The position numbers and the translations under genes are program-made. From a virus: a stretch of DNA of 11,144 bases. Location: the UHGV virus genome UHGV-0077918. One strand, given 5' to 3'. The notes below the pieces were generated by a model. That model had not been told where the DNA came from and ran no database searches. It worked only from the letters and a program-made list of their open reading frames with translations. Position 1 is the first letter of the stretch; the number at the start of each line of letters is the position of its first letter. Of the stretch, positions 1 to 10,571 are shown piece by piece.

Positions 1-20
1 TTTCTTCCATCCGTTTATAG

Positions 21-887
21 TCAGGAAGAAGGCGTTTCAGTGGTGCGGGGATACCGAAGCTTAACAGTAGCTGGGAGCCGGTCTATCAGGTCACATTCCC
101 GGATGGCTCCACGGATGTACTGAGCCAGGAGGATATCTGGCATGTGCGCACGCTGACGCTGGACGGACTGGTGGGGCTGAATCCCATCGCCTATGCCCGC
201 GAGGCAATATCGCTGGCGGCAGCGACCGAAGAGCACGGGGCCAGACTGTTCAGCAATGGCGCGGTGACGTCGGGTGTGTTGCGTACAGAGCAGACGCTGT
301 CAGATCAGGCTTACGAGCGCCTGAAGAAAGATTTTGAGGAGCGTCACACCGGGCTTGGCAATGCTCACCGCCCGATGATCCTTGAGATGGGGCTGGACTG
401 GAAGTCGATGGCGCTGAACGCCGAGGACAGCCAGTTCCTGGAAACCCGCAAGTTTCAGCTTGAAGAAATCTGTCGTCTGTTCCGGGTGCCGTTGCACATG
501 GTGCAGAACACCGATCGCGCCACCTTCAACAATATCGAAGAGCTGGGGCTGGGATTTATCAACTATTCACTGGTGCCGTATCTGACCCGCATCGAACAGC
601 GGATCAACACCGGACTGGTACGAAAAAGTAAGCAGGGCGTTTATTACGCCAAATTTAACGCCGGGGCGTTACTGCGCGGGGATATGAAGTCCCGTTTTGA
701 AGCCTACGCCACCGGGATCAACTGGGGAATTTACTCTCCCAATGACTGCCGCGACCTGGAAGATATGAATCCGCGTCCCGGTGGTGATGTCTATCTCACA
801 CCGATGAACATGACCACGAAACCCTCCGATGGCAGTAAAGCCGGTAAGCAGAAGGATAACGCCAATGCAGACGAAACAACGTCTTGA
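21..887 (+). CDS. Portal protein, HK97 family, C-terminal portion; 5' end disrupted or truncated
   Basis: Frame 3 is open from nt 21 (after an in-frame TAG at 18-20) to TGA at 885-887. The translation (..VYQVTFPDGSTDVLSQEDIWHVRTLTLDGLVGLNPIAYAREAISLA..FRVPLHMV..GDVYLTPMNM) matches my recollection of HK97-family portals. At most 289 aa are encoded, versus roughly 400 aa for this family. Confidence 0.75.
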   Translation, partial: SGRRRFSGAGIPKLNSSWEPVYQVTFPDGSTDVLSQEDIWHVRTLTLDGLVGLNPIAYAREAISLAAATEEHGARLFSNGAVTSGVLRTEQTLSDQAYERLKKDFEERHTGLGNAHRPMILEMGLDWKSMALNAEDSQFLETRKFQLEEICRLFRVPLHMVQNTDRATFNNIEELGLGFINYSLVPYLTRIEQRINTGLVRKSKQGVYYAKFNAGALLRGDMKSRFEAYATGINWGIYSPNDCRDLEDMNPRPGGDVYLTPMNMTTKPSDGSKAGKQKDNANADETTS

Positions 888-1515
888 TGTACCGCTGAGT
901 CTGAAATCTGTCAGTGACTCCGGTGAGTTTGAAGGGTATGGCTCCGTCTTTGGTGTAAAGGACAGTCACGATGATGTGGTGATGTCCGGGGCATTTGCTG
1001 CTTCCCTGCGGGCGTGGAGTGACAGAAAAGCGTTACCTGCGCTGCTCTGGCAGCACCGCATGGATGAACCCATCGGTGTTTACACCGAAATGAAGGAAGA
1101 CGATGTCGGGCTTTACGTCAGGGGACGGTTGCTTATTGATGATGATCCCCTCGCAAAACGCGCACATGCACACATGAAGGCCGGTTCGTTAACCGGCCTT
1201 TCTATTGGGTACGTCCTGAAAGACTGGGAATACGACCGGAGCAAAGAAGCCTTTCTGCTGAAAGAAATCGACCTCTGGGAAGTCAGCCTGGTGACGTTCC
1301 CGTCTAACGACGAGGCGCGGATCAGCGACGTCAAGAACGCACTGGCCCGCGGGGAAATCCCCGAACAGAAAAAAATCGAAAGAGTCCTGCGTGATGTCGG
1401 ACTCTCCCGTACCCAGGCCAAAGCATTCATGGCCGGGGGCTATGGCGCACTGTCCCTGCGCGACGCTGAGGATGTGGGCTCTGCACTGAATGCACTGAAA
1501 AATCTGAACTTCTAA
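865..1515 (+). CDS. Prohead maturation protease, HK97 gp4 family
   Basis: Motif EFEGYGSVFGVKDSHDDVVMSGAF near the N-terminus is typical of HK97-type prohead proteases. ATG 865 is preferred over ATG 829 because GAAGGA at 851-856 sits 8 nt upstream. The gene overlaps the portal 3' end and stops at TAA 1513-1515. Confidence 0.85.
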   Translation: MQTKQRLDVPLSLKSVSDSGEFEGYGSVFGVKDSHDDVVMSGAFAASLRAWSDRKALPALLWQHRMDEPIGVYTEMKEDDVGLYVRGRLLIDDDPLAKRAHAHMKAGSLTGLSIGYVLKDWEYDRSKEAFLLKEIDLWEVSLVTFPSNDEARISDVKNALARGEIPEQKKIERVLRDVGLSRTQAKAFMAGGYGALSLRDAEDVGSALNALKNLNF

Positions 1516-1529
1516 TCAGGAGAAATACG

Positions 1530-2735
1530 ATGGCGGTTGATATTAAAGATGTCGAACAGGTCGCGCAGGAGCTGCAGCAGAAGTTTGACGACTTCAAAGC
1601 AAAGAACGACAAGCGCGTGGATGCGATTGAGCAGGAAAAAGGCAAGCTTGCCGGGCAGGTGGAAACCCTGAACGGGAAACTCAGCGAGCTGGAAAATCTC
1701 AAAAGCGACCTTGAAAAAGAGCTGCTTGAGCTGAAACGTCCGGCAGGTGGTGCGCAAAATAAACTGGCCACCGAGCATAAAGAAGCGTTTGTGGGCTTCC
1801 TGCGTAAAGGCCGTGAAGACGGTCTGCGCGATCTGGAGCGTAAGGCATTGCAGGTGGGTACCGATGAAGACGGTGGCTACGCCGTGCCGGAAGAACTGGA
1901 TCGCAACATTCTTAACCTGCTGAAAGATGAAGTGGTGATGCGTCAGGAAGCCACGGTGATCACCGTTGGCGGTTCCGACTACAAAAAACTGGTGAATCTG
2001 GGCGGTACGGCTTCCGGATGGGTGGGGGAAACGGATACGCGATCCCAGACTGCCACCTCCAGACTGGAGCTGATTGAACCTCTCATGGGGGAAATCTACG
2101 GCAACCCGCAGGCTACCCAGAAAATGCTGGACGATGCCTTCTTCAACGTGGAGGCCTGGATCAACAGCGAGCTGGCAACCGAATTTGCCGAACAGGAAGA
2201 AATTGCCTTTACCTCCGGCGATGGCACCAAGAAGCCGAAAGGGTTCCTGGCGTATGAATCCACTGATGAAACCGACAAGGTCCGGGCGTTCGGCAAACTT
2301 CAGCATATTGTATCCGGCGAAGCGACCGCGGTGACCGCAGACGCCATTATCAAACTGATTTACACGCTGCGTAAGGCACACCGCACTGGCGCGAAGTTCA
2401 TGATGAACAACAACAGCCTGTTTGCCATCCGTCTGCTGAAAGACACCGAGGGTAACTATCTGTGGCGTCCGGGGCTGGAACTGGGGCAGCCGTCCTCTCT
2501 GGCGGGTTACGGTATCGCTGAAAACGAACAGATGCCGGATATCGCCGCTGATGCGAAAGCCATTGCATTTGGTAACTTCAAACGGGGTTACACCATCGTT
2601 GACCGTATCGGCACCCGCATTCTGCGTGACCCGTACACCAATAAACCGTTTGTCGGTTTTTATACCACCAAGCGCACCGGCGGGATGCTGGTCGATTCGC
2701 AGGCCATCAAACTGCTGAAGATTGCAGCGGCGTAA
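1530..2735 (+). CDS. Major capsid protein, HK97 fold, with N-terminal coiled-coil delta (scaffold) domain
   Basis: 401 aa; AGGAG at 1518-1522 sits 7 nt before the ATG. The first ~100 aa are charged and heptad-like (AQELQQKFDDFKAKNDKRVDAIEQEKGKLAGQVETLNGKLSELENLKSDLEKELLELK), followed by DEDGGYAVPEEL, the GGYxVP motif that follows the delta domain in HK97-like capsids. Confidence 0.9.
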   Translation: MAVDIKDVEQVAQELQQKFDDFKAKNDKRVDAIEQEKGKLAGQVETLNGKLSELENLKSDLEKELLELKRPAGGAQNKLATEHKEAFVGFLRKGREDGLRDLERKALQVGTDEDGGYAVPEELDRNILNLLKDEVVMRQEATVITVGGSDYKKLVNLGGTASGWVGETDTRSQTATSRLELIEPLMGEIYGNPQATQKMLDDAFFNVEAWINSELATEFAEQEEIAFTSGDGTKKPKGFLAYESTDETDKVRAFGKLQHIVSGEATAVTADAIIKLIYTLRKAHRTGAKFMMNNNSLFAIRLLKDTEGNYLWRPGLELGQPSSLAGYGIAENEQMPDIAADAKAIAFGNFKRGYTIVDRIGTRILRDPYTNKPFVGFYTTKRTGGMLVDSQAIKLLKIAAA

Positions 2736-2741
2736 TCACTC

Positions 2742-2769
2742 AGGGGCGCGGAACCGCGCCCCCTGTTCT
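2742..2769 (+). terminator. Putative intrinsic terminator or attenuator hairpin downstream of the capsid gene
   Basis: Perfect GC-rich inverted repeat AGGGGCGCGG / CCGCGCCCCT at 2742-2763, followed by GTTCTG. The U-tract is weak, so this may be a partial attenuator or an RNA-stabilising hairpin. Confidence 0.4.
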
Positions 2770-2784
2770 GACGGGTGAAGAATC

Positions 2785-2985
2785 ATGATCCTGAAACAAG
2801 ATCTGAAATGGTCACCGGACGGTATGCGTGTTGAGGTCATTCGGGCCGGTGAGTATGACGACGGGGCGCTTCCTGCCCGGGTGCAGGAGATTGCACTTCA
2901 GGCCGGGTTAGCAGAGCGCGGAATCAGTGCAAAAAGCAGTAAAGCGGCAAAAGAGAAAAAAGCCACGACCAGTAAAGAGGGCTGA
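2785..2985 (+). CDS. Hypothetical small protein (66 aa) between the capsid and connector genes
   Basis: ORF on the operon strand filling the capsid-to-gp6 gap; its stop (2983-2985) lies 2 nt before the next ATG. No family recognised; the RBS is weak. Confidence 0.45.
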   Translation: MILKQDLKWSPDGMRVEVIRAGEYDDGALPARVQEIALQAGLAERGISAKSSKAAKEKKATTSKEG

Positions 2986-2987
2986 GT

Positions 2988-3311
2988 ATGCTTCTGACAA
3001 TGGAAGAGATTAAAGCCCAACTCCGGCTGGATGAGGATTTCGATACTGATGACCGCCATCTGCAACTGCTGGCCTGTGCGGCACAAAAGCGGACGGAAAC
3101 GTATCTGAACCGGAAGCTCTATGCACCGGATGAAACCATTCCGGACAGCGATCCGGACGGGCTGCACCTGCCGGATGATATTCGTCTGGGGATGCTGATG
3201 CTTATCAGCCATTTTTACGAAAACCGCTCGTCGGTTACGGAAGTGGAGAAACTCGACATGCCGCAGAGTTTTGGCTGGCTTGTCGGCCCGTACAGGTACT
3301 TTCCGCAATGA
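2988..3311 (+). CDS. Head-tail connector protein, gp6-like (DNA-packaging / head-tail adaptor family)
   Basis: 107 aa; N-terminus MLLTMEEIKAQLRLDEDFDTDD..LQLL fits the gp6-like connector pattern. AGAGGG lies upstream of the ATG; position after the capsid is as expected. Confidence 0.7.
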   Translation: MLLTMEEIKAQLRLDEDFDTDDRHLQLLACAAQKRTETYLNRKLYAPDETIPDSDPDGLHLPDDIRLGMLMLISHFYENRSSVTEVEKLDMPQSFGWLVGPYRYFPQ

Positions 3312-3718
3312 AAATTCGTCAGGCGCAGACCAGCGCAACCTACATTCTGCCGGACCCCGGTGAACTGAATAAACGCGTCCTGATCCGCCAGCGGGTGGAT
3401 ATGCCCGCGGATAACTTTGGCATGGAGCCTCAATACCCGGTTACGTTCCGGACATGGGCGAAGGTTATCCAGACCAGTGCCACCACCTGGCAGGAAACCG
3501 CGCAGACCGGGGACGCCATCACCCATTACATCACCATTCGTTACCGCCGGGGGATCACCGCTGATTATGAGGTGGTCTGCGGTGACAGTGTGTACCGGGT
3601 GAAACGTCAGCGCGATCTGAACGGGGCGCGGCGCTTTCTGCTGCTGGAGTGTACGGAGCTGGGCGAATGTAGGCAGAGTCACGGAGGCAACAATGACGAC
3701 TTCCTTTTTGCACGTTGA
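3308..3718 (+). CDS. Head closure / head-tail joining protein, HK97 gp7-like
   Basis: 136 aa; ATGA overlap with the gp6-like stop indicates translational coupling. Size and position fit a head closure protein; the C-terminal ~25 aa overlap the next gene. Confidence 0.65.
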   Translation: MKIRQAQTSATYILPDPGELNKRVLIRQRVDMPADNFGMEPQYPVTFRTWAKVIQTSATTWQETAQTGDAITHYITIRYRRGITADYEVVCGDSVYRVKRQRDLNGARRFLLLECTELGECRQSHGGNNDDFLFAR

Positions 3719-4199
3719 TTTTCAGCAGCCCGCGGAGATGCGCTTTAACCGCGCCCGTGTCCGGCGGGCGTTTGTCACGATTGGTCAGCGTCATATGCGT
3801 GATGCCCGTCGGCTGGTGATGCGCCGTGCGCGGTCGGCACCGGGTGAAAACCCCGGTTATCAGACCGGACGCCTGGCTCGTTCGATTGGTTATATGGTGC
3901 CGAGAGCCAGTAAAAAGCGAGCCGGTTTTATGACACGCATTGCCCCTAACCAGCGCAACGGGAGGGGGAACCGGATGATCTCTGGTGACTTCTATCCGGC
4001 GTTTCTGTTTTTTGGTGTCCGGGGAGGAGCAAAACGTCGTCGTAGTCATCATCGTGGTGCATCCGGTGGCAGCGGCTGGCGACTGGCTCCACGTAATAAC
4101 TTCATGGTGGAAACGCTTGAAAAGAACCGCAGCTGGACACGCTATTTTCTGGCGCGGGAATTGCGTAAATCACTGAAGCCGGAGCGACGACACAGATGA
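3693..4199 (+). CDS. HK97 gp10-family neck / tail-component protein
   Basis: 168 aa, basic; GGAGG precedes the ATG. Contains a PGENPGYQTGRLARSI segment resembling the gp10-family signature; ATGA overlap with the next gene. Confidence 0.65.
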   Translation: MTTSFLHVDFQQPAEMRFNRARVRRAFVTIGQRHMRDARRLVMRRARSAPGENPGYQTGRLARSIGYMVPRASKKRAGFMTRIAPNQRNGRGNRMISGDFYPAFLFFGVRGGAKRRRSHHRGASGGSGWRLAPRNNFMVETLEKNRSWTRYFLARELRKSLKPERRHR

Positions 4200-4756
4200 A
4201 ACTGACGCCTGTTATTGCTGCACTGCGTGCCCGCTGTCCGTATTTTGAAAACCGGGTTGCAGGCGCGGCCCAGTTCAAAAATCTGCCGGAGGTCGGAAAG
4301 CTGAGACTCCCGGCGGCGTATGTGGTACCGGGTGATGACTCTCCGGGAGAAAACAAAAGCCAGACCGACTACTGGCAGGAGCTGAAAGAGGGCTTCTCCG
4401 TGGTTGTCATACTGAGTAACGGGCGTGATGAGCGCGGTCAGTTTGCCTCGTATGATGTGGTGGACGATGTCCGGCAGATGCTCTTTAAGGCTCTGCTGGG
4501 CTGGAACCCGGAGGCGTGCGGTAACCCGATTACCTATGACGGCGGCACGCTGCTGGATCTGAATCGTCATGAGCTGATTTATCAGTTCGATTTTTCGGTC
4601 ATCAGCGAGCTGACCGAAGACGATACCCGCCAGCAGGATGACCTGAACAGTCTGGATGAACTGCAAACGCTGGCGATTGATGTTGATTATCTCGATCCCG
4701 GTAACGGGCCTGACGGCGATATCGAACATCACACCGAAATAACCCTTCCTTCCTGA
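4196..4756 (+). CDS. Tail terminator / tail completion-like protein (gpU-like pattern) with acidic C-terminal extension
   Basis: 186 aa; residue pattern (M.L..V..AL..., LP..YVVPG, DYWQEL, FSVVVIL, WNP) resembles tail terminator proteins. Assignment is by pattern and position only. Confidence 0.5.
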   Translation: MKLTPVIAALRARCPYFENRVAGAAQFKNLPEVGKLRLPAAYVVPGDDSPGENKSQTDYWQELKEGFSVVVILSNGRDERGQFASYDVVDDVRQMLFKALLGWNPEACGNPITYDGGTLLDLNRHELIYQFDFSVISELTEDDTRQQDDLNSLDELQTLAIDVDYLDPGNGPDGDIEHHTEITLPS

Positions 4757-4764
4757 GGATCCTC

Positions 4765-4935
4765 ATGTTTGTCAAACCTGTTAAAGGGCGGTCAGTTCCT
4801 GACCCTGCCCGCGGCGACCTTTTGCCCGCCGAAGGGCGAAATGTTGACGAGAACAACTACTGGCTGCGCCGTGAAGCAGCGGGTGATATCCGGCGCGTGA
4901 ATAAAAAGGTGAACACCGATGACGATAAGCTTTAA
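4765..4935 (+). CDS. Small hypothetical protein (56 aa), not in the supplied ORF track
   Basis: My own translation: ATG 4765, MFVKPVKGRSVPDPARGDLLPAEGRNVDENNYWLRREAAGDIRRVNKKVNTDDDKL, TAA 4933-4935. GAGGA at 4755-4759 sits 5 nt upstream; the 3' end overlaps the next gene by 17 nt. Confidence 0.4.
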   Translation: MFVKPVKGRSVPDPARGDLLPAEGRNVDENNYWLRREAAGDIRRVNKKVNTDDDKL

Positions 4936-6202
4936 CACCATTCCGTCGAATACGCTGGTTCCGCTGTTTTATGCGGAAATGGATAACCAGGCGGCGAATA
5001 CCGAAGATCTGGGAAAAGTCACTTTCCGCCCGTCCATCACAGCTTATGTGGTGGGAGATGACTGCTTTGACCAGCGCGATCGCCTGATTGACGCGCTGAA
5101 TAAACCCGGTCCCGGCACGCTTGTCCATCCGACTTACGGTGAGCTGAAAGTCTGTGTTGACGGGGAAGTTCGGGTCAGCACATCGAAGAGTGAAGGACGT
5201 ATTGTCCGCTTTGACCTGAAGTTTGTCGAAGCAGGAGAACTCTCTTACCCCACATCAGGTGCGGCGACGGCGCAGGCGCTGATGTCATCCTGTTCTGCAC
5301 TGGATGACTGCATCAGTGACAGCTTCAGCGGTTTCAGTATCGATGGCGTGGCGGATTTTGTGCAGAACGACGTCGTCGGTAATGCCAGCACAATGCTTGG
5401 GTATGTTTCTGATGCGATGAAAGTGGTGGATTCTGCCGTATCGGATGCCGCCAGGCTGTTGCAGGGGGATATCTCGGTACTTCTGCCGCCGCCATCGTCA
5501 GGCAAAAATTTCGTTGAGCAGGTGCAGAAAATGTGGCGTACCGGGAAACGCCTTTATGGTAACGCCAGCGACCTGGTCACCATGATCAAAACGCTTTCCG
5601 GTGTCAGCCTCGGCAGCGATCTGCAACCGCGCGGCGTCTGGAAAACGGACAGTAAAACCACCGCCACGGCGACGCAGCAGCGTAACGTGGTTGCCAGCAC
5701 CCTTCGTACGACCGCAATCAGCGAAGCGGCGTATGCCGTCATCCGATTGCCTGCGCCAACAACTTCCGCGGTGATGCAGAATGCCGCAGTGGGGCAGTCA
5801 ACAACACCCGCGCAGAGCACCGGCTGGCCTTCCGTCACGCATCCGGCACTGAACAATGCACCGGCGGTGAAAAACACGGTTGACCTGCCAACGTGGGAAG
5901 AACTGACCGACATTCGCGACACACTGAATACGGCAATTGATAAGGAGTTGTCCCGTACAACCAGTGATGCGCTGTTTCTGGCGCTGCGCCGGGTGAAAGC
6001 AGATCTGAATGCGGATATCAACACGCGCCTTGAACAGTCTGCACGGATCATTCAGCGCACGCCGGATGAGGTTTTACCCGCGCTGGTGCTGGCGGCGACC
6101 TGGTTTGATAACGCGGCGCGTGACGCGGACATTATCCGGCGTAATGCCATTACGCATCCCGGCTTTGTGCCGGTGATCCCTCTGAAGGTGCCAGTGCAAT
6201 GA
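4919..6202 (+). CDS. DNA circularisation protein N-domain family (Mu gpN / gp43-like) tail protein; N-terminal ~28 aa possibly derived from a tail sheath gene
   Basis: 427 aa. EDLGK..VVGDDCFDQRDRLIDALNKPGPGTLVHPTYG matches my recollection of the DNA_circ_N domain, and the gene sits immediately upstream of the gpP/gp45/gp46/gp47/gp48 array as in Mu. The first residues (MTISFNTIPSNTLVPLFYAEMDN) look more like a Mu-type sheath N-terminus. Confidence 0.6.
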   Translation: MTISFNTIPSNTLVPLFYAEMDNQAANTEDLGKVTFRPSITAYVVGDDCFDQRDRLIDALNKPGPGTLVHPTYGELKVCVDGEVRVSTSKSEGRIVRFDLKFVEAGELSYPTSGAATAQALMSSCSALDDCISDSFSGFSIDGVADFVQNDVVGNASTMLGYVSDAMKVVDSAVSDAARLLQGDISVLLPPPSSGKNFVEQVQKMWRTGKRLYGNASDLVTMIKTLSGVSLGSDLQPRGVWKTDSKTTATATQQRNVVASTLRTTAISEAAYAVIRLPAPTTSAVMQNAAVGQSTTPAQSTGWPSVTHPALNNAPAVKNTVDLPTWEELTDIRDTLNTAIDKELSRTTSDALFLALRRVKADLNADINTRLEQSARIIQRTPDEVLPALVLAATWFDNAARDADIIRRNAITHPGFVPVIPLKVPVQ

Positions 6203-7273
6203 ACGATAATGTCACGCTACGGGTAAATGGCCGGGAGTGGAATGGCTGGACATCGGTGCGCATCGGTGCCGGTATTGAACGGCTGGGATTTCAGCGTGGA
6301 GATCACCCGCCAGTGGCCGGGAGATGAGGGTATCACCACGCTTCAGCCGCGCATTAAAAATGGTTCAAAAGTGGAAGTGCTGATTGGTGATGAGCTGGTG
6401 ATCACCGGCTGGGTGGAGGCGACCCCCGTTCGTTACGATGCCCGTTCGGTCAGCACCGGTATTGCCGGACGTAGTCTGACTGCTGACCTGATTGACTGTG
6501 CAGCCGAACCGACACAGTTTAACGGACGATCGCTGGTACAGATTGCGCAGGCGCTTGCTGCGCCTTTCGGCATTGAGGTGGTGAACAGCGATGCGCCGTC
6601 GGGTGTTATTCCTGATGTCCAGCCTGATCACGGTGAAACGGTGATTGAGGTAATCAACAAAATACTCGGTCAGCAGCAGGCACTGGCTTACGACGACCCG
6701 CACGGCAGGCTGGTGATTGGCGGTATTGGCTCAACGCGGGCACATACCGCGCTGGTACTTGGGGAAAACATCCTTTCCTGCGATACGGAGAAGAGTATCC
6801 GGGAGCGGTTTTCTGTTTACCAGGTGGCGGGGCAGCGTGCCGGAAACGACGATGATTTCGGTGAGGCCACCACCACCGCGCTGCGGGCCCGCACAGAGGA
6901 CGCATTTATTGCCCGTTACCGTCCGATGTATATCAGGCAGACAGGGCAGGCCACGGGGGCAGGCTGTATTGCGCGTGCTGACTTTGAAGCCCGACAACGG
7001 GCGGCGCGGACGGATGAAACCACCTATGTGGTGCAGGGCTGGCGACAGGGTAACGGTACGCTGTGGCAGCCCAACCAGCGGGTGATTGTCTTCGATCCGG
7101 TCTGTGGTTTCGACAATACCGAACTGCTTGTTTCGGAAGTCACGTTTACTCAGGACCAGAACGGCACCCTGACGGAAATCCGTGTCGGCCCACCTGATGC
7201 TTATCTGCCTGAACCAGAAGCCCCCGGCGCGCGGAAAAAGAAAAAAGCCAGAGTACAGGAGGACCCGTTCTGA
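6199..7273 (+). CDS. Baseplate protein, Mu gpP (gp44)-like; reading frame apparently interrupted near nt 6285-6290
   Basis: ATG 6199 overlaps the upstream stop (ATGA) and frame 1 encodes MNDNVTLRVNGREWNGWTSVRIGAGIERL before a TGA at 6325-6327. The rest of the protein (DFSVEITRQWPGDEG.. to 7273) is in frame 2, which is closed upstream of 6227. Confidence 0.6.
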
Positions 7274-7821
7274 TGAGGACGATTGAAGCCATGCAGCGAC
7301 AACTCCTCGGCCTGATTGGGCGGGCCGTGGTGAAAAGCATCAGTGCCGCCACGAAATGTCAGACCGTGGATGTGTCCCTGATTGCCGGTGAACCCAAAGC
7401 CGGGGTTGAACATCTTGAACCCTACGGTTTTACCGCAAGGGCAAACAGCGGTGCGGAAGCGGTGGTGTTGTTTCCGGATGGCGACCGTTCTCATGCGGTG
7501 GTTGTTACGGTGTCGGACCGGCGCTACCGCCTGAAAGGGCTGCAGACGGGTGAGGTGGCTGTCTATGACGATCAGGGGCAGTCCGTGACGCTGACCCGGG
7601 AGGGGATCGTGGTGGACGGTGCAGGTAAAACGATCACGTTTCGCAATGCACCTGAAGCACGTTTTGAAATGGACCTGGAAGTGACCGGACAGGTGAAAGA
7701 CCTGTGCGACTCCGGCGGCACCACCATGTCAGCGATGCGGCTTGCCTATAACGGGCATCGTCACAGAGAGAACGGTCAGGGCAGTAACACCGACAAACCG
7801 GATAAAGCGATGGAGGCATGA
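7273..7821 (+). CDS. Baseplate spike / assembly protein, gpV-like (Mu gp45-like)
   Basis: 182 aa; TGATG overlap with the gpP-like stop. C-terminal CDSGGTT..HRH motif resembles the P2 gpV / Mu gp45 family. Confidence 0.7.
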   Translation: MRTIEAMQRQLLGLIGRAVVKSISAATKCQTVDVSLIAGEPKAGVEHLEPYGFTARANSGAEAVVLFPDGDRSHAVVVTVSDRRYRLKGLQTGEVAVYDDQGQSVTLTREGIVVDGAGKTITFRNAPEARFEMDLEVTGQVKDLCDSGGTTMSAMRLAYNGHRHRENGQGSNTDKPDKAMEA

Positions 7822-8246
7822 TGGAACTGTGGCTGACGGTGAACGGTAAACGCACCTGCGCCAGCGCACCGCTGGATCCGCTGACCCGCGCCGTGGTGAT
7901 TTCCCTGTTTACCTGGCGGCGGGCGGAGCCTGATGACAACGCCGACGTCCCGATGGGATGGTGGGGGGATACCTGGCCTGCGGTACAGAATGACCGTTAC
8001 GGCTCCCGACTGTGGCTGCTTCAGCGCAGCAAACTGACCAATCAGCTGGTGCAGACGGTAAGGGGGTATATCCGCGAATGCCTGCAATGGATGATTGATG
8101 ATGGCGTGGTGTCCCGTATTGATCTGGATATCCGCCGCACCGGGATTAATGAACTGGGTAACAGTATCACTCTCTGGCGTCGTGACGGACCGGTAATGAT
8201 TTCTTTTGATGATCTGTGGAGTGCGATAACGCATGGCGGACAGTGA
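7818..8246 (+). CDS. Baseplate wedge protein, Mu gp46-like (GPW/gp25 family)
   Basis: 142 aa; ATGA overlap with the upstream gene. Size and position between the gpV-like and J-like genes match the Mu gp46 position. Confidence 0.65.
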   Translation: MMELWLTVNGKRTCASAPLDPLTRAVVISLFTWRRAEPDDNADVPMGWWGDTWPAVQNDRYGSRLWLLQRSKLTNQLVQTVRGYIRECLQWMIDDGVVSRIDLDIRRTGINELGNSITLWRRDGPVMISFDDLWSAITHGGQ

Positions 8247-9291
8247 ATTTCAGCGCCCGACGCTGGCAGAAAATATCAGTATGCTCCGTAACGATTTATT
8301 CGCCAGGCTGGACGTCAGCGACACGCTCCGGCGCATGGATGAAGACGTGCGGGCAAAGGTGTATGCGGCGGCGCTGCATACGGTTTACGGTTACATCGAT
8401 TATCTGGCAATGAACATGCTGCCTGACCTGTGCGATGAGTCCTGGCTGGCGCGACATGCTGCGATGAAACGGTGTCCGCGCAAGGGGGCCACGGCTGCCA
8501 GCGGGTATATGCGCTGGGAAGGTGTCAGCGATGGCCTGAAGGTGACTGCCGGGAGCGTGATTCAGCGCGATGACCTGGTTCAGTACACGGCAACTGCCGA
8601 TGCAACCAGCTCCGGTGGTGTCCTGCGCGTGCCGATCGCCTGCTCAAGTGCAGGCGCGGTCGGTAACGCTGACGACGGTACGGCATTAATCCTGGTCACG
8701 CCGGTGAATGGTCTGCCGTCTTCCGGTGTTGCAGATACTCTGACTGGCGGATTCGATACTGAAGATCTGGAAACGTGGCGCGCCCGCGTCATTGAGCGGT
8801 ATTACTGGACGCCGCAGGGCGGGGCTGACGGGGACTATGTCGTCTGGGCTAAAGAAGTGCCCGGCATTACCCGCGCATGGACATACCGTCACTGGATGGG
8901 AACGGGAACTGTCGGTGTGATGATTGCCAGCAGTGACCTGATTAATCCCATTCCGGAAGAATCAACGGAAACGGCGGCAAGACAACATATCGGGCCACTG
9001 GCCCCGGTGGCAGGCTCTGATTTGTATGTATTCAGGCCGGTGGCACATACGGTGGATTTTCATATCCGCGTGACGCCGGACACACCAGAAATACGGGCTG
9101 CCATCACCGCGGAGTTGCGTTCGTTCCTGCTGCGTGATGGTTATCCGCAGGGAGAACTGAAGGTATCGCGTATCAGTGAGGCGATTTCCGGTGCGAACGG
9201 GGAATACAGCCATCAGTTGCTTGCACCGGCAGACAATATCTCCATTGCAAAAAATGAACTGGCGGTACTGGGGACGATTTCATGGACGTGA
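8233..9291 (+). CDS. Baseplate J-like protein (Mu gp47-like)
   Basis: 352 aa; overlaps the upstream gene by 14 nt. Size and position are typical of baseplate J family proteins. Confidence 0.75.
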
Positions 9292-9866
9292 CAAACGATG
9301 ATTACATCCGTCTGTTGTCGGCACTGTTGCCCCCCGGTCCGGCGTGGTCAGCCAGCGATCCGGCGATTGCCGGTGCGGCACCGTCATTAACCCGCGTTCA
9401 TCAGCGTGCGGATGCCCTGATGCGGGAGCTGGATCCGCGCACCACCACTGAACTGATAAACCGCTGGGAGCGTCTGTGCGGTCTGCCGGATGAATGTATT
9501 CCCGCAGGGACACAGACCCTTCGCCAGCGTCAGCAACGGCTGGATGCGAAGGTTAACCTGGCGGGCGGCATCAACGAGAATTTTTATCTTGCACAGCTTG
9601 CTGCCCTGGGCAGACCAGACGCTACCATCACGCGATACGACAAAAGCACGTTCACCTGCTCATCGGCCTGTACTGACGCGGTGAATGCGCCGGAATGGCG
9701 GTATTACTGGCAGGTCAACATGCCAGCCGCCACAAACACCACCTGGATGACATGTGGCGATCCCTGTGATTCCGCGCTGCGTATCTGGGGCGACACCGTT
9801 GTCGAATGTGTGCTTAACAAACTCTGCCCGTCGCATACCTACGTAATTTTTAAATATCCGGAGTAA
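9282..9866 (+). CDS. Tail protein, Mu gp48-like (YmfQ-like, DUF2313-type)
   Basis: 194 aa; overlaps the J-like gene's 3' end and lies immediately upstream of the tail fibre gene, as for gp48/YmfQ-type proteins. Confidence 0.6.
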
Positions 9867-9869
9867 TCC

Positions 9870-10571
9870 ATGCATCGTATAGACACGAAAACCGCGCAGA
9901 AGGATAAGTTCGGCGCGGGTAAGAACGGTTTTACCCGTGGTAACCCCCAGACTGGCACACCTGCCACCGATCTGGATGATGACTACTTTGATATGTTGCA
10001 GGAAGAACTCTGCAGCGTGGTGGAGGCATCCGGTGCCAGCCTGGAGAAGGGGCGAAACGACCAGTTGCTTACCGCGCTTCGTGCTCTGCTGTTAAGCCGC
10101 AAGAATCCGTTTGGTGATATCAAATCGGATGGCACGGTGAAAACGGCTCTCGAAAACCTTGGTTTGGGAGAAGGCTCAGCATTACCCGTTGGTGTGCCTG
10201 TTCCGTGGCCTTCAGCCACTCCGCCAACAGGCTGGCTGAAATGCAATGGTGCGGCTTTTTCTGCTGAAGAATACCCGGAACTGGCAAAGGCTTATCCAAC
10301 AAATAAATTACCTGATTTACGCGGTGAGTTTATTCGTGGATGGGATGATGGGCGCGGGGTGGATGCAGGGCGCGCGCTTCTCTCGGCGCAGTCCGATTTA
10401 TTTAAAGCGCACCACCACAATTTTTCGTTTTTTAGAGCCTGGGCTGTAGATGGAGGGACTGGTGCTGTATACGATTTTAACGGCAGTGCAGGCAGAGATA
10501 CCGACGACACCGGCGGAAATGAAACGCGCCCCCGCAACATTGCATTTAACTACATTGTGAGGGCTGCATAA
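9870..10571 (+). CDS. Tail fibre protein: conserved N-terminal region plus tail-collar-type variable C-terminus
   Basis: 233 aa. The N-terminus [46 protein letters not shown] is typical of enterobacterial prophage tail fibres. The C-terminal part (..[18 protein letters not shown]..) resembles the phage tail collar domain. The gene contains the invertase crossover site at 10147-10172. Confidence 0.75.
10147..10172. other. Hin/Gin/Pin/Cin-family serine invertase crossover site (hix/gix-like) inside the tail fibre gene
   Basis: CTCTCGAAAACC-TT-GGTTTGGGAGAA: two 12-bp half-sites in inverted orientation around a 2-bp core. By my count 19 of 26 positions match hixL (TTCTTGAAAACCAAGGTTTTTGATAA). 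It sits at the constant/variable junction of the fibre ORF (encoding ..ALENLGLGE..). Confidence 0.6.

Follow-up and report, generated by a model that had tools for sequence, protein, structure and literature searches.

Gene content and the sheath-gpN junction

UHGV virus genome UHGV-0077918, called the window in what follows, is 11,144 bp long and constitutes a whole metagenome contig (ENA assembly ERZ773149, NODE_2963_length_11144_cov_3.26) with a k-mer coverage of 3.26. Its seventeen called genes run from a fragment of a portal gene to a tail fibre gene (Table 1), and between head-tail connector and tail fibre they are ordered as in the serotype-converting Shigella/E. coli myoviruses SfV, SfII, SfI and SfIV and in the intact prophages RM10466 and YD786, which occupy the e14 locus. 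The window very probably derives from an SfV/e14-type temperate Escherichia myovirus and is a genuine remnant with more than one lesion, in which the sequence points to a single illegitimate, microhomology-mediated deletion of 4,204 bp between the tail sheath gene and the gpN gene.

The SfV genes of this region are ordered orf9, orf10 (DUF2635), orf11 (sheath), orf12 (tube), orf13 (tail protein), orf14 (tape measure), orf15 (gpN) and orf16 (gpP), an arrangement shared by the intact E. coli prophages RM10466 and YD786. In the window the DUF2635 gene is instead followed by a single open reading frame (ORF) of 427 codons. BLAST comparison with SfV gives two arms, in which window 2987–5001 aligns with SfV 5579–7593 (92% identity) and window 4998–10173 with SfV 11794–16974 (98%); with RM10466 (locus L003) the arms are window 52–5001 with L003 7353–12302 and window 4998–10173 with L003 16503–21683, both about 98% identical, so the nearest relative does not change across the junction. 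The missing block is 4,204 bp with respect to both references (SfV 7594–11797 and L003 12303–16506). In an ungapped comparison identity to the sheath gene extends through window position 5001 (...GCGAATAC) and identity to the gpN gene starts at 4998 (ATACCGAAG...); these overlap at 4998–5001, and the crossover therefore lies within the shared ATAC. As the two breakpoints agree in codon phase, the reading frame is kept across the join. An initial annotation, made without database searches, had proposed one in-frame deletion located between 4757 and 5010; the junction falls inside that interval, and one deletion of 4,204 bp explains both arms against SfV as well as RM10466.

The predicted product divides at the same point. 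BLASTP aligns its residues 1–28 with sheath residues 1–28 at 100% identity and its residues 28–427 with gpN residues 43–442 (394 of 400 identical), which agrees with the expectation of that annotation that sheath similarity would be confined to the extreme N-terminus and that gpN similarity would begin internally. The Pfam DNA_circ_N match in the fusion covers only profile positions 34–88 of 88, so that the complete N-terminal domain carried by its 442 amino acid relatives is not present. The C-terminal 400 residues are those of a gpN in the family of phage Mu gp43 (protein N, Pfam DNA_circ_N), and relative to that family the sheath N-terminus stands in place of the first 42 residues (profile positions 1–33). 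When RM10466 proteins were used as tblastn queries against the window, the sheath protein matched with its residues 1–28 only (window 4919–5002, 100% identity), and the tube, assembly chaperone and tape-measure proteins had no significant match (best E at least 0.6). Gene layout and tblastn thus uphold the initial annotation in that these four genes are missing between the tail terminator and the gpN-like gene and are found nowhere else in the window. The constituents of a functional Mu/SfV-type contractile tail module, a sheath gene of about 498 codons and the tube, chaperone and tape-measure genes, are absent, gpN is without residues 1–42 and gpP is frameshifted (see below); the element is unable to build a tail.

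One illegitimate recombination event joined sheath codon 28 to gpN codon 43 through ATAC; lost with it were 470 of the 498 sheath codons, the genes for tube, tail assembly chaperone and tape measure, and gpN codons 1–42. The DUF2635 gene and the fusion ORF share 17 nt, the 3' end of the former lying over the start of the latter, as it does over the sheath start in intact phages (SfV orf10/orf11), and the DNA 5' of the fusion, this overlap included, is the sheath gene's own. Late-operon transcription, if the operon is transcribed at all, would therefore give a sheath(1–28)-gpN(43–442) hybrid translated from the sheath start signals. The tube initiator of Mu, gp43, is a hexamer, and it is the tube-like domain of this protein that starts assembly of the tube (PMC11915804), and full-length gpN of the present family aligns with Mu protein N (PDB 9ki1) from gpN residue 10 with an E value of 2.4e-14. 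The fusion protein would lack the first third of the N-terminal DNA_circ_N domain, a part that forms the tube-like barrel in Mu gp43, and because this part is missing the hybrid is most likely non-functional.

Table 1. Features of the 11,144 bp window and the basis of each assignment
Feature	Position	Strand	Basis and remarks
yfdR-like HD-hydrolase (5'-deoxynucleotidase), internal fragment	1..52	-	100% identical to yfdR in many E. coli genomes and to the RM10466 prophage HD hydrolase gene
Junction J2, yfdR ...GGGGAT to portal ACCGAAGCTT...	52..53		About 400 nt into the portal gene; microhomology of 1 nt (T) only
Portal gene, 3' two-thirds (5' part deleted)	53..887	+	Pfam Phage_portal; 98.4% identical to RM10466, ungapped
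Prohead protease	865..1515	+	Gene call and Pfam; intact length
Major capsid protein	1530..2735	+	Gene call and Pfam; intact length
ORF of 66 amino acids	2785..2985	+	Gene call
Head-tail connector	2988..3311	+	Gene call and Pfam; intact length
Head closure protein	3308..3718	+	Gene call and Pfam; intact length
Neck protein	3693..4199	+	Gene call and Pfam; intact length
Tail terminator	4196..4756	+	Pfam Phage_tail_terminator PF23840, E=2e-26
DUF2635 (Mu gp38-like), 56 amino acids	4765..4935	+	Pfam PF10948, E=1e-16
In-frame sheath'-'gpN fusion ORF, 427 amino acids	4919..6202	+	BLASTP split
Tail sheath remnant, start codon and codons 1–28	4919..5001	+	28/28 identity to RM10466 sheath; DNA identical to SfV 7511–7593
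Deletion junction J3, 4-bp microhomology ATAC	4998..5001		Sheath GCGAATAC/TGCAC and gpN CCCTATAC/CGAAG; ungapped comparison, BLAST arm overlap
gpN 3' portion (DNA circularization protein/tube initiator), codons 43/44–442 and stop	5002..6202	+	394/400 identity to 442 amino acid gpN
Baseplate hub gpP, frameshifted	6199..7273	+	5-bp deletion (CGCGG) between 6286 and 6287
gp45-like spike	7273..7821	+	Pfam; intact length
gp46	7821..8246	+	Pfam; intact length
Baseplate J	8233..9291	+	Pfam; intact length
gp48/YmfQ	9282..9866	+	Pfam; intact length
Tail fibre	9870..10571	+	Pfam; intact length
pix-like crossover site for Pin-type invertase, within fibre gene	10147..10172	+	21/26 bases identical to the RM10466 site beside pinE (manual position-by-position comparison)
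Tail-fibre assembly gene, runs off contig	10571..	+	Pfam

Two further lesions

The left end of the window is also a join, in which an antisense internal piece of a yfdR-like gene is fused straight to the middle of the portal gene; alignment to the YD786 and RM10466 portal genes begins at window position 52. In RM10466 the yfdR-like gene adjoins xis/int and lies about 17.7 kb upstream of the portal breakpoint, and between the two are found early/regulatory and lysis genes, HNH, terminase and the portal gene's 5' third. Since these 17.7 kb separate the two points, the early, lysis and terminase genes are missing from the window. Translation of the portal frame meets a stop at codon 6, inside the yfdR-derived part. 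The third lesion is in gpP, where five bases (CGCGG) that are present in SfV and RM10466 are missing; the native frame ends after 42 codons, and gpP residues 32–359 continue in another frame. The remaining genes have the lengths of their intact counterparts, and those of the head and neck genes (865..4199) equal the RM10466 and YD786 annotations.

The element is thus more degraded than the initial annotation held, as the left-end truncation and the gpP frameshift are present in addition to the tail-gene deletion. SfV-type phages have orf11 through orf14, a full-length gpN and an intact gpP, and the window has none of these in intact form. To judge from the genes within the missing left-hand stretch, the element would also be unable to replicate, lyse its host or package DNA.

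The baseplate and fibre region is 97–98% identical to SfV and RM10466 up to window position 10173. Plus-strand homology to RM10466 stops there, and window 10154–10364 matches the inverted RM10466 segment beside pinE; the invertible fibre segment thus appears to be in the other orientation relative to RM10466, or fixed in that state.

Intact relatives and the rarity of the junctions

Both arms of the window are found at one place in 801 of 5,426 complete E. coli genomes. In the best of these the match to the 11.1-kb query is spread over 15.3–16 kb, a span whose annotation includes sheath and tape-measure genes. The intact relatives occupy the e14 locus, together with ymfR, ymfQ, pinE and mcrA. 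None of the 5,426 genomes has the sheath-gpN junction when searched with a 48-mer centred on it, nor was it found with an exact 39-mer in one genome per species or with degenerate 26-mers in IMG/VR and metagenome contigs. The yfdR-portal junction is spanned by no complete E. coli genome, and the 5-bp gpP deletion is absent from all 5,426 of them and from the GTDB representatives.

The exact 427 amino acid fusion product is recorded for a single contig, the window itself. It belongs to a 90%-identity cluster of 249 members, and those that were read are 442 amino acid gpN proteins with the normal N-terminus, one being 456 amino acids long. Full-length gpN homologues that share the fused N-terminus would have spoken against the deletion proposed in the initial annotation; there are none among the members read.

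Comparison with e14

The initial annotation had likened the element to e14-type remnants, and this likeness is borne out: the intact relatives sit at the e14 locus, and the e14 element of E. coli K-12 (ymfR-beeE-jayE-ymfQ-stfP...pinE-mcrA), a cryptic prophage that ranks among those studied most, belongs to the same phage lineage as the window and is likewise a deletion derivative. In e14 a portal fragment, beeE, is joined to a baseplate J fragment, jayE, through the 4-bp sequence GGTA, and its portal breakpoint coincides with that of the window. The two remnants differ in what they kept. From e14 all that lies between mid-portal and baseplate J is lost, whereas the window keeps head, neck and baseplate genes and lacks only the sheath-to-gpN block and, apart from it, a block on the left. 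Of the portal site common to both, the left side remains in e14 and the right side in the window. A literature search on the e14 deletions and on beeE/jayE found nothing usable.

We note that e14 also carries ymfN, annotated as a chimeric replication protein/phage terminase. Late-region homology between e14 and RM10466 starts abruptly at e14 position 8402 (locus L004), the counterpart of which in RM10466 lies inside the large terminase gene; this position is the boundary of the oweE/aaaE pseudogenes and is within ymfN, and no shared bases are evident directly to the left of the join.

Recurrent breakpoints

Each large junction of the window has one copy of the 9-mer ATACCGAAG (51–59 and 4998–5006), and these two are the only copies in the window, where 0.03 would be expected. 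The right-hand end of both large deletions is one and the same 8-mer, T^ACCGAAG (TACCGAAG; (A)TACCGAAG), and in 24.3 kb of the RM10466 late region TACCGAAG is found only in the portal and gpN genes (L003 7353 and 16504), that is, at the right-hand breakpoints of the window. The e14 junction was located by an unanchored comparison of K-12 e14 with RM10466: portal sequence ...GTGT[GGTA] is joined to baseplate J sequence [GGTA]TATGCG at L004 10136–10139, which corresponds to L003 7351–7354 in the portal gene and L003 20014–20017 in baseplate J. Its portal breakpoint is therefore within 2 nt of that of the window (L003 7353).

Scans of IMG/VR anchored on the portal and gpN breakpoint sites gave seven remnants, L134 to L140. 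Three (L135, L136 and L139) are e14-type copies. The sequence to the left of the portal site is joined in L137 to a gene that was recognised by eye as gp48, at its 3' end, and in L138 to a capsid gene, also identified by eye, at GCA^ACCGAATTT; the sequence to its right is joined to ymfM through TACCG in L134. In L140 an early-region gene is joined through TAC to the right side of the gpN site, at the same TACCGAAG as in the window (reverse complement 10592/10593). About 1.15 kb is missing from L140 at another place as well, in its gpP-to-spike region, with a 10-nt overlap of the BLAST arms (reverse complement 11821–11830).

The different partners seen at the yfdR breakpoint, ...GCGGGGAT^G, number at least six. 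These are the portal gene in the window, codon 22 of the tail fibre gene in E. coli SZQ1, a gene annotated as phage tail tip protein in PSS-10, a short fragment followed by gpP in strain 41, a ymfH-like gene in strain H2 and the IMG/VR contig L131, and an inverted fibre segment 70 nt from a pix site in the metagenome contig L133. The site was located at L006 3052, at position 2552 of L008, L009 and L010, and in L131 and L133; the intact copy is L007 3052/3053. Among the first 120 IMG/VR contigs listed there are no yfdR-site junctions, all copies being intact. A further metagenome match to the yfdR pattern, L132, was rejected as a junction, as it is an intact yfdR allele (GGGGATATCC). The SZQ1 junction was also considered as a descendant of that in the window, which is not supported, as the fibre genes of the two are only about 93% identical (manual count over about 110 nt).

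All of the recurrent joins have 1–5 nt of microhomology and no longer homology. Illegitimate recombination mediated by microhomology is the usual route of prophage decay, and the short shared sequences here are of the same kind; the difference is that endpoints are reused to the nucleotide in independent remnants, which that general model does not predict.

Origin of the remnant

The approximately 98% identity to RM10466 in both arms and the conserved gene order, together with the loss or inactivation of virion-essential genes by three lesions (the yfdR-portal join, the sheath-gpN join and the gpP frameshift), are what is expected of a prophage remnant, and the three lesions represent successive steps of prophage decay. 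Several observations weigh against such an origin. The window has no host flank, so that chromosomal integration is deduced from relatives alone; its left end falls 52 nt into the yfdR fragment, a gene that adjoins xis/int in those relatives. The k-mer coverage is 3.26x and the sheath-gpN junction is known from the assembled contig alone, and this junction, the fused protein, the 5-bp deletion and the yfdR-portal join are all recorded solely on this contig. In addition, an in-frame result is expected by chance in one case out of three and is silent on function.

The same low coverage, the lack of a second record and the crowding of three unique anomalies into 11 kb would suit an artefact, in which a chimeric read or a mis-join in a low-coverage assembly had linked the sheath 5' end to the gpN gene of an intact prophage. 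We consider this improbable. With no more than 4 bp in common between the arms, far short of any assembler k, at least one physical read must carry the join. At the join there is neither a repeat as long as the assembler k-mer nor a switch of closest relative. The contig continues through the junction, which suggests that no competing branch survived assembly. The other junction of the window lands to the nucleotide on breakpoints of finished isolate genomes (the yfdR site in SZQ1, PSS-10, strain 41 and H2, and the portal site in K-12 e14), as random in vitro chimeras would not, and the gpN breakpoint recurs in the unrelated IMG/VR contig L140. A functional tail-less entity, either a capsid-forming satellite that borrows the tail of a helper or a defective phage propagated with one, could be imagined from the intact length of the head and neck genes and from the in-frame fusion, but it is far less credible still. 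The portal gene is truncated, there is no terminase gene, and the part lost at the left junction is where the relatives have their terminase, lysis and replication genes; genes for baseplate and fibre have been kept close in sequence to those of functional phages, with one of them frameshifted, which is not a satellite layout, and the sequence has been found only once. Nor is the window a tailocin, since sheath and tube genes are absent and head genes are present. A damaged SfV/e14-type prophage remnant thus remains the favoured interpretation.

A refinement of this remnant origin is that the breaks were directed by a sequence-specific activity, such as a nickase, a restriction-like enzyme, a relaxase-like enzyme or a recombinase, acting at T^ACCGAAG and at yfdR GGGGAT^G, the ends then being joined through 1–5 nt of microhomology. 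It is in keeping with the restriction of ATACCGAAG to the two window junctions and of TACCGAAG to the two RM10466 breakpoint sites, with the use of the portal site by K-12 e14 and by L134, L137 and L138 and of the gpN site by L140, and with the many partners of the yfdR breakpoint. We hold it only tentatively, as no enzyme or recognition logic has been identified, the yfdR site does not have the shared 8-mer, several of the examples come from site-anchored scans without control positions so that the excess is not quantified, the BLAST ranking favoured yfdR junctions with ACCG-like partners, and plain microhomology joining fits all of the junctions too. Two candidate activities are not supported: Pin invertase acting at pix-like sites, because the pix sequence differs and the crossover position is unfit for exchange of a central dinucleotide, and secondary-site recombination by the integrase, because int is about 1.3 kb away from the yfdR site and the remnants differ in their integrases. 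Self-targeting by a type I-E clustered regularly interspaced short palindromic repeats (CRISPR) system, Chi/RecBCD, a KpnI-like cut at GGTACC and relaxase pseudo-nic sites were also weighed, and none is supported. The coincidences that came from unanchored comparisons, namely the 8-mer shared by the two junctions of the window and the portal breakpoint common to e14, are nevertheless hard to ascribe to chance. The recurrent breakpoints suggest a sequence-preferred break.

Implications

The deletion of the tail genes is in itself ordinary prophage decay of a known, e14-like kind; it is a routine example of prophage death and matters mainly for annotation. This contig should not be counted as a viable phage, and its 427 amino acid ORF should be annotated as a sheath'-'gpN fusion pseudogene and not as a DNA circularization protein. 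A broader and somewhat more doubtful proposal is that the decay of SfV/e14-type prophages is non-random, a preferred break or strand transfer at T^ACCGAAG (in portal and gpN) and at GGGGAT^G (in yfdR) repeatedly giving nucleotide-precise endpoints, among them the classic beeE-jayE junction of K-12 e14 and those of the two large deletions in the window. If this is true, a host or phage activity dismantles the SfV/e14-type prophage family at defined sites; and if that activity is a specific one, it would be a concrete and testable mechanism of prophage inactivation that would also explain the structure of e14.

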